From Octopus vulgaris (lineage: Eukaryota): 64,000 nucleotides of DNA. Positions 9,326 to 30,482 of the stretch are shown piece by piece (within the stretch, counting starts at the first letter, position 1; every line of letters begins with the position of its first letter). Below the pieces are notes generated by a model. That model saw only the letters and a list, made by a program, of their open reading frames with translations, had not been told where the DNA came from and ran no database searches. The position numbers and the translations under genes were made by a program. The stretch covers positions 82,336,001 through 82,400,000 of the forward strand of contig OX597825.1 of the NCBI GenBank assembly GCA_951406725.2. The letters run 5' to 3'.

Positions 9326-9683
9326 CATACCTCGCTCAGATATTTATTATTGTTTGTTTACACTTTTTCGGGATCGGTGACTTTTCGTCACTGGAAAAAG
9401 GATTTATATATATTCACATTGGGCACCGCTTCACTTCGACAAACGGTGATTGTCACACGCTGATGACAGGTCAATAGTCAGAAACTCGAGTCTGTGTGTA
9501 TCAAGTCAGGTTGAAGACGGGAAGGATGGCTTCCCTTTGCAAATACTGATAGGGCACGAAAGTGTGTCAATAGGCAGCTGGAGGATATGTCCTCCTGGGG
9601 CTACAATCTATAGTAGCATCCACCCTTAAGGGTTAGCCAAATTTAAGTGGTAAATATACTTCACGATGTCGTGCAGCTGGCGT
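9326..9683 (+). mobile_element. Retrozyme-like element family 1, copy 1
   Basis: Colinear homology to 25003-25384 and 30146-30482 (ccctttgcaa, cctggggcta, tagcca blocks); contains an HHR. Confidence 0.75.
9454..9498 (+). ncRNA. Type I minimal hammerhead ribozyme motif
   Basis: cacacg-CTGATGA-caggtcaatagtca-GAAA-ctcgag-TC-tgtgtg. Stem I is 6 bp, stem III is the palindrome ACTCGAGT, GUC site; stem II is weak. Confidence 0.75.
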
Positions 9684-9924
9684 CAAGTCAATCCCTAAAA
9701 GAACTGGGTTTCGGCAACTTGGCACAGTTCCTTTGTTGTTTCAGGGGCCGCCTGTTTCAACCACGTGATGAGCTGCGGAGGCGGCCCCGGTGCAAAGTGC
9801 GCGGGTATCGGTTTCGCGAACCGTCGTCCACCTCAATAAAAACCACGCGAACCGTCAATCTGGACCCTGCATGATGCAGACGACAAGACTGAGAAAAGAA
9901 AATTATTTTGAGCTGTGACATGAT

Positions 9925-9960
9925 TGTTAAAACCGCAATTATTTTTGCACCAACCTAATA
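9925..9960 (-). mobile_element. Solo mariner TIR (Hsmar1/MADE1-like)
   Basis: Reverse complement reads tattaggttggtgcaaaaataattgcggtttt. Confidence 0.6.
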
Positions 9961-11454
9961 AAAATAAATCGAAACCTTCGTCTGGAGATGTCGAGAAAAC
10001 AAACGTCGGTTGAACTGTGAGATATAGTTAAAACCCCACTGATATAAGGATCTCGAAATATTTATGTACGTAGTGATGTCGATGGCGAGAAAAATTGAAA
10101 CGATGAAGAACAATTAACTTTTAAAAGAATTGGACCATTCCATGCGGGGGTTCGTATTGAAGATTTTATGCATACAACATGGAGTGAGGATTCCTTTTCG
10201 TGAATACAATAGAGATTGCCCTATTTGCCCTATTTTCACTGCATTTGGGGCTGTTGCACTATACTTTACAATAAGCAGTGAGTAATTACTTCTGCCCCCA
10301 AAAGGGAAACAAGCAAATTATTCTAGCAGAGAGAAAATAATAGGAGAGGAGAAAGAGAAGGACGTATGACATGTACACACACAAACACACATACACACAG
10401 ACACACATACGCGCACACACATACACGCGCGAACACACACACACGCGCACGCACGCACACACACACATATATATAAATATATATATAAATGTATATATAT
10501 ATATATATATATATATATTTATATATATATATATATATACATATATATATGTGTATATATATATATATATATATACATAAATATATGCATATACACATAA
10601 TATACATACATACATATATATATATATATACAGACACACACATATATATATATATATGCATGCATGTGTTTGTGTTTGTGCGTGTATGTGTGTAAGTATA
10701 AATGCATACATGCGTACGTACATACATGCATATATGCACACACATTACACGCGCGCGCACACACAGAGATATATATGCGCAAAGAAAGAAAGAAAGAAAG
10801 AGAGAGAGAGGGAGAAAGAGAGAGAGCGTGCTACAACAGTATAAAACACATATTATTTTAGTTTTCCCTCTGCATTTTACAAATTTCGGTGTTTATCTTG
10901 TATCAGGAATCGTATTCCCCAAACACCGACAGCAACCGAAGAAAATGCCACACCAGCCCTAATGAAACGAATACCAATTCCTTTAAACAAGCACCAAAGC
11001 ACACACATTCTTAGATGGAGTGTAAAGTTCGGTTAGATTTAAATAAAGTTAGTTGAAGATTGATACAGATTTGTGGAACCCATGGTATTTTGTAAAGGAA
11101 AGCTTGTTAAGGGATCACAAGTGGAGAAAACAAGGCGTTTGATCTTGTTTCTGCTTCTCCACAATCATTAACAGACCAGATCTCAGATATCAAAAAAGTA
11201 GAGAATACATGTGGAATAACAGAAAATCTGGAGAAACATACACTTTTATCTATCTATCTATCTATCTATCTATCTATCTATCTATCTATCTATCTATCTA
11301 TCTATCTATCTATCTATCTATCTATCTATCTATCTATCTATCTATCTATCTATCTATCTATCTATCTATCTATCTATCTATCTATCTATCTATCTATCTA
11401 TCTATCATTCTATCTATCTATATATCTATCTATATATCTATATCTCAGTACATA

Positions 11455-11995
11455 CAGGGTGTTCAAAAAGTCTCTCCGCAGTAAATCTTTTCATTCTGCG
11501 CATGCGCAACTTGGCTATCACTGCGTGGGTGACCGGATTTCAATCATTGCCCCTCAGCCATTGTGTATCCTTCAGCGTGTCGACATGCGATGCGAACCAT
11601 TGAAGAACGCACATACTTCGCACATTACCATGGCGCTACTTCAAAAGTTTTTCGGTGAACGGATTATTTCGAAGGGTCTTTGGCCACCAAGGGCCATGAT
11701 TTAATACTGCCAGACTGTTTTTTCTGGGGAGCAAATAAAGGATCAATGTGCAAGAATCACCCGAAAGCCATTATTGAGCTAAAAGACGCCTCAGACTCTC
11801 CAAGATGTATTTCAAAACCTGGGTGGAAGAGTCAACTTATGTATTAAAAATGGAGGCCGACACTTTCAACACCTCTTAAAAAGTTTTCTTAAAGTCTTGT
11901 AAAGACTAATACATTCTCTTGTAGTCTTATACCATCTTATAAATATTTATTTTGCAATAAAATACTCGCTGCGGAGAGACTTTTTGAACACCGTG
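11455..11995 (+). mobile_element. Tc1/mariner-superfamily deletion derivative
   Basis: 27-bp TIR cagggtgttcaaaaagtctctccgcag with one mismatch, TA on both sides. Transposase remnant RIISKGLWPPR...DL...DCFFWG (WPPRSPDL motif). Confidence 0.9.
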
Positions 11996-27867: not shown

Positions 27868-28292
27868 TTGAGTGAGAGAGCAGTGCATGCCATCAAAGTG
27901 ACACTGGGGTAAAATATACGAAGCCCAGTATACCCATCATGACTACCCGTCTGATATGGGTACACTAGGCACATGCATCACAACCATATGTGCGCGACAT
28001 GGTGATCTCATATCAAGATAAACAGCACATGACCTTGCAGGTGGGGCCCAGTTAGAATTTTCTTCAGGTTGAGTAGCCCATCCCGCTCAAAAGGTCCCTG
28101 AATAGGGTTGTTTAAGGATGTTGAAAGAACCACCCATGTTTCCAGAGGTGAACTATTCAAACCCCAAAGGAACCCTCTCAACACATGGCTATGATGCTCC
28201 CCCACTACTTCTGCTCGTGATCAGAGATGCACATATCGTCAGCCACTAAGGGACATGCTCAACTGCTTAAGGTCAAACAACTGACAAGCAAA
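27868..28292. mobile_element. Unclassified ~420 bp repeat inserted in (TAA)n
   Basis: Homologous to 60802-61060 (gagtgagag.gcagtgcatg.catcaaagtgacactggggtaaaatatacgaagcccag). Confidence 0.75.
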
Positions 28293-29303
28293 TTAATATT
28301 ATTATTATTATTATTATTATTATTATTATTATTATTATTATTATTATTATTATTATTATTATTATTATTATTATTATTATTATTATTATTATTTCGATAG
28401 CGGAAACTGATAAAATCGTTTGAATGTCGGACAATATACTTAGCAATATTACTTCCGTCTTTAAGGTTTCAGATTAAATTTCGTCGAGGGTGCCCTGGCT
28501 TTTAATCCTACCGGAATCGATAGAATAAGTATCCGCTGAGCATATGGGGTCGATGTAATCGACAACCACCAGTATTACAGTAGAAAGGATTCTTCTTCTA
28601 CCTTTTCCTCCTCCTCCTCCTCCTGCTCCTCCTGCTCCTCTTCTTCCTCCTCCTCTTCTTCTTCTTCCCCATCCTCATCATCCCCTTCTTCCTCCTCCTC
28701 TTCTTCTTCTTCTTCTACCTCCTCCTCCCCTTCCTCCTCTTCTTCTCCCCTCATCTTGTTGCTTGTTGTTGCTCTTCTTCTTCTTCTTCTTCTTCTTCTT
28801 CTTTCTCTTCTTCTTCTCCTTCTTTTTCTTCTTTTTCTTTTTCTTCTTTGTCTTCTTCTTCTTCTTCTTCTTCTTCTTCTTCTTCTTCTTCTTCTTCTTC
28901 TTCTTCTTCTTCTTCTTCTTCTTCTTCGTATTTTGCTGTTGTTGCTTTTGTTGCTGTTGCTTTTATTTGTGTCTCGATGCGAAAGGCTACGTGGAAATCA
29001 GAATTATTTAAATTCAAAGTAATAACTACCAAAATGAATTGCCTTTTTTGAAATTATTACATTTTCTTTGGATTAATTAATAACACAGTGGATTTATGCC
29101 ACGTCGGCTTGTCTACCCCTGTACCTGACGCAGACAGAAGGTTTGCTTTAGTCGCCATTTTAATTCTTTCTTCGGAATGTTACTGTGTTTATACAGATTT
29201 TCAATATGATTTCTGGTACGAAAGAAACAGCGACAAGAGAGGCATCCACAAGGCAGTCTTTTAATCTTTGAACGCAGAAATATAAATCTTATACAACAGG
29301 TGA

Positions 29304-30095
29304 AGGCGTGGTTATGTGGTGAGAAGCTTGTTTCCCAACAACATGGTTCCGGTTTCAATTCCACTGTGTGCCACCTTGGCAAGTGTCTTCTGTTATAGCC
29401 TCGCGCCGACCAAATCTTTGTGAGCTGAATTGGGACATAGAAACAGAAAGAAGCCCGTCCTATATGTATGTATGTATGTATGTATGTATGTATGTATGTA
29501 TGTATGTATGTATGTATGTATGTATGTATGTATGTATGTATGTATGTATGTATGTATGTATGTATGTATGTATGTATGTATGCATGTATGTACGTACGCA
29601 TGTATGTATGTATGTATGTATATATGTATGTATGCATGCATGCATGTACGCATCCATGATATATATATATATATATATATATATATATATATATATATAT
29701 ATGTATGTATGTTTGTTTGCATGAATGTATGTATGCATGTATTTATGTACACATGTACACATGTATATATGTATGTCTGTATGTATATAAACGTTTTTGT
29801 ATATATATATATATATATATACACACACACATATATCTATATATAGATATATATATATATATGTGTGTCTGTGTCTGTGTGGGTGTCTGTGTTTGCCCTC
29901 CACCAGTGCTTGACTACCGGTGTTGGTGTGTTTCTGTCCGTGTAACTTCGCGGTTCACTTAAAAAGACGATATAATTAATACCATGCTTAAAGATAGGTA
30001 CTGGTGTCGATTCTTTTGACTAAAACTCTCCAAGGCTGTGCCCCAGCATGGCCACAGTCTACTGACTGAAACACATACAAGAATAAAAAATAAAA
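29304..30095 (+). mobile_element. SINE family A split by a ~400 bp internal microsatellite
   Basis: Head 29304-29460, tail about 29870-30095. Confidence 0.8.
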
Positions 30096-30133
30096 CAGAT
30101 GAAAAGAAGTTAAAAAGAAATAGGTAAAGTATA

Positions 30134-30482
30134 CTAGCCATCTCAATATGGCTAGCCACTGGGAGTGGGTGTTACTGTAGCTTTTAGCCCCAGGAGATCA
30201 ACGTCTCCAGCTGGGTTTAGGCTCACTTTCTGTGCCCTTATGGTATTTGCAAAGGGAGGTCATCCCTCTCTCGTAAGCCTAAGTGATACGTACGAACTGC
30301 AGTTTCTAGGTATTTGCCTGTTGTCAACGTACGGCATTCACCGGTTTTCGATGAAGGGAGACCTGTTTGCAAAATATTTATTGTTTTTCCCAGTAACTTC
30401 CGTCACTGATTTCGAAAAACAATAATACTTTACGTTGTCGAGCAGTTACTGTTTACATCTCGTTCAGAGATTTATTATTGCC
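30134..30482 (-). mobile_element. Retrozyme-like element family 1, copy 3, with inverted terminal piece
   Basis: 30146-30419 matches copy 2 on the minus strand. 30420-30482 (gagcagttactgt...ttcagagatttattattgc) matches copy 2's start on the plus strand. Confidence 0.75.
30289..30333 (-). ncRNA. Type I minimal hammerhead ribozyme, U3-A8 variant
   Basis: Minus strand cgtacg-TTGACAA-c-agg-caaata-cct-a-GAAA-ctgcag-TT-cgtacg; palindromic stem III ACTGCAGT, GUU site. Confidence 0.75.

Follow-up and report, generated by a model that had tools for sequence, protein, structure and literature searches.

Here we analyse a 64,000-nucleotide (nt) stretch of the Octopus vulgaris genome (assembly GCA_951406725.2, contig OX597825.1, positions 82,336,001 to 82,400,000 of the forward strand; hereafter 'the window'), which holds three hammerhead ribozyme motifs (copies 1, 2 and 3) picked out in an earlier note. 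Taking the evidence together, we think it probable that these are the hammerheads of a retrozyme without long terminal repeats (a non-LTR retrozyme) that inserts in the manner of a Penelope-like element (PLE), is likely to be copied in trans by a Penelope-type reverse transcriptase (RT)/endonuclease, and is predicted to cleave as a dimer. Copies 1-3 are members of one non-coding repeat of ~355 nt, with thousands of relatives in the 2.8-Gb genome; on the evidence of sequence, the structure of the hammerhead is kept under selection in those subfamilies that were amplified. Its core tolerates C3-G8, U3·G8, U3-A8 and U4C, each of which is found in amplified lineages.

All three motifs lie where the earlier note had placed them, base for base and with the cores that it gave, and its description of the palindromic stem III sequences, of the stem I strands and of the non-canonical 10.1-11.1 pairs (Table 1) likewise holds. 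Copy 1 has the canonical core of a type I hammerhead, and copies 2 and 3 have that core with the U3-A8 swap, a natural variant already published from natural hammerheads (PMC3088659) and from the PLEs of Schistosoma (PMC4209133); none of the three has the standard 10.1-11.1 closing pair of helix II. A descriptor for type I hammerheads (YUGANRA, GAAA and UH, with a helix I of 6 bp) matched the window at four distinct sites, one of which (61952-61998) is absent from the earlier note; all four have a palindromic stem III and a Watson-Crick 3-8 pair. In 60 dinucleotide shuffles, done block by block, the yield per window was 0.57 sites of whatever kind and 0.017 palindromic/Watson-Crick sites.

Inside the window, BLAST places copies 1-3 within homologous stretches of ~300 nt (pairs involving copy 3 are 67-70% identical), and a first look at the genome returned 3430, 1472 and 2954 candidates for copies 1, 2 and 3 respectively, of which 40 per copy were scored. 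Across 90 loci the unit is 352-357 nt long, non-coding and circularly permuted, with one type I hammerhead; it is within the size range of about 170-400 nt, and agrees with the definition of a non-LTR retrozyme as a short non-coding unit with one such hammerhead (PMC7229834; 10.64898/2026.07.22.740005). There is no conserved open reading frame (ORF) in the unit, and no ORF combining RT and GIY-YIG in either unit or window. Each window copy is a single-hammerhead insert, and tandem units with a period of 356 and at least two hammerheads are found at other loci, two of which, an array in subfamily C and one in subfamily A (Table 1), are candidate source loci for multimeric transcripts. A tRNA-headed short interspersed nuclear element (SINE) was considered and set aside, there being no sign of one: a tRNA search found no tRNA gene, and a bacterial-type promoter scan, which is uninformative for RNA polymerase III, found no promoter-like site above shuffles.

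It is the architecture of the inserts that points to PLE-type insertion. Their 3' ends are fixed, at two sites 44-47 nt apart that bound an optional tail, their 5' ends are variable, and head-to-head inversions are present; both inversion and tail are visible on window copies 2 and 3 themselves. A (TA)n run lies on at least one side of 28 of the 30 subfamily-B loci listed (counted by eye, with some of the loci overlapping), and 56 B end-site junctions divide into 16 that end at the first site, 19 at the end of the tail, 18 that read through and three inside the tail, with the corresponding counts for subfamilies A and C being noisier owing to mismatches to the search patterns. The family combines partial tandems, an inverted 5'-truncated copy, an optional tail and microsatellite targets; this agrees with PLEs, which are described as having partial tandems, inverted 5'-truncated copies and a 30-40-bp tail (10.1101/2021.04.23.441226), the last of which has been traced to two internal start sites for reverse transcription (PMC11167929). 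That the repeat is instead satellite-like DNA, spread by unequal exchange, conversion and fold-back repair with the hammerhead as a passenger from an old PLE end, strikes us as very improbable; some copies do sit in long tandem arrays and mosaics between subfamilies occur, as such a history would have it, but most copies are dispersed inserts of one to two units, constant at the 3' end and variable at the 5' end, which bear a PLE-type tail, and the compensated RNA helices found across the unit would be unexpected under DNA-level spread.

Table 1. Coordinates of the hammerheads, retrozyme inserts, tandem arrays and autonomous PLE (window positions, unless a locus elsewhere is named)
Feature	Coordinates	Strand	Description
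Copy 1 hammerhead	9454..9498	+	type I; C3-G8; C10.1·A11.1; stem III ACUCGAGU; cleavage predicted after 9492; stem I 9454, core CUGAUGA 9460, G12 9481, H17 9492, end 9498
Copy 2 hammerhead	25168..25213	+	type I; U3-A8; U10.1·U11.1; stem III ACCUAGGU; cleavage predicted after 25207; stem I 25168, core UUGAUAA 25174, G12 25196, H17 25207, end 25213
Copy 3 hammerhead	30289..30333	-	type I; U3-A8; C10.1·A11.1; stem III ACUGCAGU; private GUU triplet; stem I 30333, core UUGACAA 30327, G12 30306, H17 30295, end 30289
Fourth hammerhead-like motif	61952..61998	-	U3-A8 core; stem III ACCGGU; outside the 355-nt family
Retrozyme copy 1 (subfamily A)	9327..9678	+	one ~352-nt unit, stops 11 nt into tail; 92.6% identity to A majority
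Inverted partial unit of copy 2	24898..25004	-	5'-truncated; last 62 nt of unit + 44-nt tail; abuts (TA)n
Retrozyme copy 2 (subfamily B)	25003..25384	+	last 26 nt of a unit + whole 356-nt unit; stops at first 3' end site, then (TA)n; 97.7% identity to B majority
Retrozyme copy 3 (subfamily C)	30124..30420	-	5'-truncated unit; 95% identity to C majority
Inverted piece of copy 3	30425..30481	+	last 12 nt of unit + 45-nt tail; 100% identity to C majority
Subfamily-C array	G000:C4:13620762-13624379		about 10 units
Subfamily-A array	G000:C2:14086526-14089376		about 9 units; CCGA core
Autonomous PLE example	L203:831-2954	-	pLTR motif at about L203:3150-3222; also G000:C1:57208300-57215000

The earlier note had held that these are type I hammerheads from distinct amplified subfamilies, with their structure under selection, and both points are borne out by the genome copies and the subfamily majority sequences. 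Pairs were counted, cell by cell, in an alignment containing one copy for each of 14 subfamily cores: 96.1% of the 280 pair cells are paired, as compared with 20-50% in slid controls, and two-sided changes are seen in 30 cells against 8.5 in shuffles (0 of 500 shuffles as high), a control that ignores relatedness, which counts against us, and for this reason lineage events were counted separately; phylogenetic correction is approximated through these lineage-event counts only. Stem I, extended stem I, the 3-8 pair and stem III are 100% paired in the 14 representatives, as are the three helix II pairs above 10.1-11.1; helix I is open, with ~6 bp extended past a bulge, and four of its pairs have two-sided change. 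Divergence between representatives reaches 44%, and G5, A6, A9, G12-A15, C15.2, G16.2, U16.1 and C17 are invariant throughout. Over the whole unit, RNAalifold finds two-sided change at 20 of 66 pairs (10 copies).

Stem III is short and self-complementary, as in hammerheads that act as dimers. Five palindromes occur in the amplified subfamilies (ACUCGAGU, ACCCGGGU, ACUGCAGU, ACUAUAGU and ACCUAGGU), and self-complementarity survives all four multi-base changes, an outcome to which a neutral simulation gives 0.15-0.19 per stem III event and, for all four, about 0.0006 if strict or about 0.002 with wobble allowed. The self-duplexes are worth -10.7 to -14.9 kcal/mol, as against +2 to +2.9 for the 2-bp hairpin. 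Since the inner bases of stem III are unpairable in a monomer, yet would form an 8-bp duplex in a dimer, we regard this as the best evidence for dimer cleavage, following the model set out in PMC4209133 and summarised in PMC6765202.

With the core columns masked, a tree built on the majority sequence of each subfamily starts from A and passes through old C and young C to D and B. The split of D and B from all others has 100% bootstrap support, values inside young C (34-78%) do not fix its internal order, and the rooting on A rests on within-group divergence, about 4-5% in A versus 1.6% in B, in samples biased to the best hits. As the U3 lineages (young C, D and B) nest together even with the core masked, the 3-8 swap was probably one inherited event, U3-A8 having arisen once and being common to copies 2 and 3; the three copies cannot, then, serve as separate tests of covariation, as had been supposed. 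Several further features listed at the outset are indeed present, but belong to single copies rather than to lineages: the ugugug strand and poor stem II of copy 1 are private relative to the A majority (five private changes in the hammerhead region, three of which spoil helix II), and the cguacg/cguacg stem I and GUU triplet of copy 3 are private relative to the C majority. The hammerhead of copy 2 equals the B majority except for one loop-2 base. We thus read the GUU, and parts of stems I and II in the window copies, as copy-private decay.

A subfamily-C pattern that leaves the core free has 375 genomic matches, and its first 100 listed matches, counted by hand, have C-G at 3-8 in 60, U-A in 29, U·G in seven and something else in four (C·A in one); amplified lineages have only C-G, U·G and U-A. 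The combination of U3-A8 with C10.1·A11.1 seen in copy 3 is a minor one, at 1 of 100 among the first genomic matches listed. Subfamily D, for which a short intermediate-subfamily pattern has 205 marker matches in the genome, was parsed in 24 copies, 21 with U3·G8 and the other three with U3-A8, from a sample in which seven of 31 segments had no hammerhead and several came from tandem or duplicated loci; here U3·G8 may represent either a forward intermediate or a reversal.

Subfamily B lies 34-44% from the other subfamilies, with its own copies differing by about 1.6%. Long internal branches and short tips of this kind might be explained were the unit also to replicate RNA-to-RNA, as a viroid-like circle, an idea raised for PLE hammerheads (PMC4209133) and for mussel retrozymes (PMC7229834), and one that the branched, highly paired circular folds of the unit would suit. 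We see scarcely any probability in this: the intermediate subfamily D exists in the genome, such that the gaps between subfamilies may be a matter of sampling, the hammerhead is on one polarity only, and error-prone reverse transcription would be sufficient.

The core also varies at position 4, which is C in 45 of the 100 subfamily-C matches listed (hand count), with one CCGAAGA 35-mer of this subfamily having 94 exact matches in the genome, and in 226 of 424 matches to subfamily A. Because U4 groups separate the C4 groups of A and C in the tree, U4C has spread at least twice or been moved by recombination. U4C is known from peach latent mosaic viroid, in which it is described as lowering activity (PMC3088659) and as not abolishing it (PMC9608096), and the CCGA hammerheads of a zeta virus cleave in vitro (10.64898/2026.09.16.752053). 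Two other sources of variation were tried and rejected: CpG decay as the origin of CUGAAGA in subfamily C, where private CpG C>T and G>A changes are symmetric but 11 CUGAAGA stand against 0 CCAAAGA in the first 100 listed, and A-to-I editing, private changes having no excess of A>G over T>C.

As to the enzyme, the end of a PLE endonuclease was found beside one B copy; it belongs to an autonomous PLE of this genome, which we put forward as a candidate partner enzyme source for the retrozyme; it has the same (TA)n targets and two-site ends. Its 2.58-kb tandem unit has an intact 708-amino acid (aa) ORF with RT, a YKDD motif, a cysteine-rich linker and a GIY-YIG-type C-terminus (the GIY-YIG match itself being sub-threshold, E 0.013), and by its linker we take the element to be Neptune-like. 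The protein is 38-52% identical to many unnamed proteins, and a search by sequence found no solved relative. The family is very young and abundant, with 16,133 candidates, all 150 of those scored being 100% identical over 90 residues. The hammerhead in its pseudo-long terminal repeat (pLTR) has CCGA in 32 of 32 parsed copies (three of 35 were unparsed) and an extra U before GAAA, and its motif has 3,363 genome matches; among the first 100, 98 have C4. A comparable scan over 77 related metagenome PLE loci gave 42 distinct sense-strand motifs and two antisense; 40 of the 42 are canonical CUGA, one is probable noise, and the lone CCGA case (L241:1161-1210) is a well-formed hammerhead with a CCGAAGA core. 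From this imbalance of strands, and from the 40 CUGA cores, we conclude that the PLE motif is a real hammerhead and that C4 is rare elsewhere. C-to-U editing that would restore U4 in the PLE was looked for in contigs from one unlabelled run and from three that are guessed to be RNA, with nothing listed at the 5% level; this is a weak test, as rare variants are dropped from contigs.

Saying this, a number of observations weigh against a retrozyme that cleaves as a dimer and is moved by PLE enzymes. Copy 1 scores 19.2 bits with Hammerhead_1 (RF00163; gathering threshold 34) and copy 2 scores 19.0 bits with Hammerhead_HH9 (RF02275; gathering threshold 52), copy 3 has no Rfam hammerhead match, and five family loci gave none at threshold. 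Three of the 14 representatives have a standard 10.1-11.1 pair and 11 a non-standard one; U10.1·U11.1 has been published as an exception that is tolerated (PMC3088659). Folded in isolation, each copy takes a lowest-energy form other than the hammerhead, which carries a penalty of 5.6-10.5 kcal/mol, and in the circular folds too the lowest-energy form is not an active one. No family member is recorded as RNA among the listed holders, which include only contigs of guessed RNA runs; one such contig spans 303 nt of unit B with two differences, and is no evidence of transcription. The autonomous PLE and the retrozyme have tails of different length (67 nt versus 44-47 nt) and share only (TA) runs and matches with E 0.6 or worse, such that, for the one PLE family compared, the homology to pLTR or tail expected of a derivative of the local PLE was not found. 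Lastly, hammerhead mutants of a lizard PLE do not reduce insertion in vitro, and its hammerhead cleaves only in the presence of its protein (PMC11167929).

In an alternative, the mobile element is the same but can do without cleavage, or cleaves very weakly; the fold would be kept for PLE protein binding or for priming close by, whilst the core drifts (U4C, U3·G8, and C·A at 10.1-11.1) under relaxed selection. We consider this unlikely, though deserving of real weight, for lineages with non-standard cores have reached hundreds of copies, C4 is present in every parsed copy of the young autonomous PLE, PAc insertion in vitro is unaffected by hammerhead mutation (PMC11167929), Naiad PLEs have spread without hammerheads (10.1101/2021.04.23.441226), and in a deep scan of another hammerhead the activity of core mutants was low except for the C3G/G8C swap (PMC9901934). 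A drifting core sits poorly, however, with the invariance of the core and flanking nucleotides named above, with the restriction of 3-8 to three pairings in amplified lineages, with a palindromy of stem III that is useful to a dimer only, and with the in vitro cleavage of natural CCGA hammerheads (10.64898/2026.09.16.752053; PMC9608096).

Returning to the retrozyme moved by PLE enzymes, we infer from sequence, copy architecture and lineage counts a course of events that includes transcription, dimer cleavage, circle formation and mobilisation. Transcription of source copies that lie in tandem would yield RNA of several units, and within it the palindromic stem III strands of two hammerheads would join in an 8-bp duplex, with cleavage following GUC; the unit-length RNA so released may circularise, by analogy with mussel and coral retrozymes (PMC7229834). 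Once it had nicked DNA at (TA)n, the PLE protein would begin reverse transcription from two internal sites that lie 44-47 nt from each other, an enzyme step modelled on PMC11167929, with the two start sites giving rise to the optional tail, the circularly permuted inserts longer than one unit and the head-to-head inversions that are observed in the DNA. Selection would act on source copies only, with single inserts such as those in the window left to decay, and we suggest that it is this that produced the succession of subfamilies, with their compensated stems, from A by way of old C, young C and D to B. We also speculate, giving the idea a slim chance, that the CCGA core of the dominant PLE might be a slowed, protein-licensed hammerhead, active only once the element's own protein is bound, and that two retrozyme lineages converged on the same cores (CCGAUGA and CCGAAGA), so timing cleavage to capture of the PLE protein; if true, the series (C-G, U·G, U-A; U4, C4) would be a natural, dated record of a core crossing a fitness valley in a genome.

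The class of element and the U3-A8 swap were already known, and the value of the family lies in its natural core series: one genome holds a succession of amplified C3-G8, U3·G8, U3-A8 and U4C cores, alongside a young, intact PLE with U4C. New here are the U3·G8 subfamily, the separate spread of U4C in two subfamilies and its fixation in a young PLE. These lineages lie beyond what the earlier note could see, and it also did not name the host element, a retrozyme or non-autonomous PLE. In the accessible text of the literature on octopus hammerheads, U4C, CCGA with retrozymes, and octopus non-autonomous Penelope elements (including PMC8967140), we found no description of the family; Lunse et al., the supplements of PMC4209133 and the 2026 preprints may overlap with it, including by way of cephalopod examples. 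These natural sequences make testable both the need of hammerhead cleavage for the spread of PLEs and retrozymes, and the rescue of weak cores by PLE protein. The mobilisation of animal retrozymes by PLEs has so far been argued from co-occurrence and trees, and a PLE-type tail and inversions on non-coding inserts lend it mechanistic support.

Several other features of the window should be recorded. When the whole of it was scanned with Rfam, the first 150 rows (252 others rank lower) were miRNA models matching microsatellites. The fourth hammerhead-like motif lies near the fixed 3' end of a separate repeat that terminates on (TA)n (61896-62079, minus strand), and a relative elsewhere in the genome (L315:157-327) keeps the core with H17 changed from C to A. 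Directly upstream of copy 1 is a 218-bp fold-back (9089-9306), 83% self-complementary, with short (TA) runs at its flanks and no similarity to the retrozyme unit. Arms of 1,490 bp that are 100% complementary (12877-14366 and 17883-19372) lie inside a larger inverted duplication (about 12350-14890 and 17360-19890), which is either very recent or an assembly artefact. A 292-aa open frame at 51737-52615 (plus strand), with a weak match to RVT_1 and DUF6451, is the 3' part of a long interspersed nuclear element, and a non-LTR element that terminates in (ATT)n has left repeated pieces of its 3' part at 562-1113 (minus strand), near 1-191 and at 27479-27761; the peptide of the first, which has no Pfam match, presumably resembles a restriction-like endonuclease end. 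A minimum of four further families of dispersed repeats, 150-320 bp long and with four to nine window copies each (1780-1938, 2035-2198, 5995-6317 and 7423-7620, plus partners), are probably SINEs.

The closest known systems are the metazoan non-LTR retrozymes (PMC7229834; 10.64898/2026.07.22.740005), which are alike in their ~350-nt non-coding unit (350-390 bp in mussel), in having one type I hammerhead per unit, in occurring as monomers, dimers and arrays, and in co-occurring with PLEs. They differ in that, for the octopus family, circular RNA and cleavage are predictions, in that a tail and inversions of PLE type can be observed on its inserts themselves (the accessible text of the 2026 preprint, 10.64898/2026.07.22.740005, does not use the word 'tail'), and in its amplified U4C and U3·G8 lineages. 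The pLTR hammerheads of PLEs (PMC4209133; Lunse et al., via PMC6765202) share the type I topology, the short palindromic helix III, the dimer model and U3-A8, with about 1,300 hits in Schistosoma mansoni (PMC4209133). Unlike these, the window copies have no ORF, a helix I of canonical size with a bulge, and a 4-bp helix II, and whereas G10.1-C11.1 is given as highly conserved in PMC4209133, the octopus subfamilies mostly have C·A, C·U, G·U or U·U. The Anolis Poseidon PLE (PMC11167929) likewise has two 3' end sites with a tail between them, and AT-rich targets, its tail being 30-40 nt as against 44-47 nt in the octopus retrozyme and 67 nt in the local autonomous PLE. As for the cores themselves, U3-A8, U10.1·U11.1 and U4C are the same single substitutions as those reported among natural variants (PMC3088659), and the CCGA cores of viroid-like RNAs (PMC9608096; 10.64898/2026.09.16.752053) carry the same change; but where the published variants are rare or belong to single replicons, in the octopus U4C has become fixed in thousands of copies belonging to three or more separate lineages, and most copies of an entire subfamily, D, have U3·G8.

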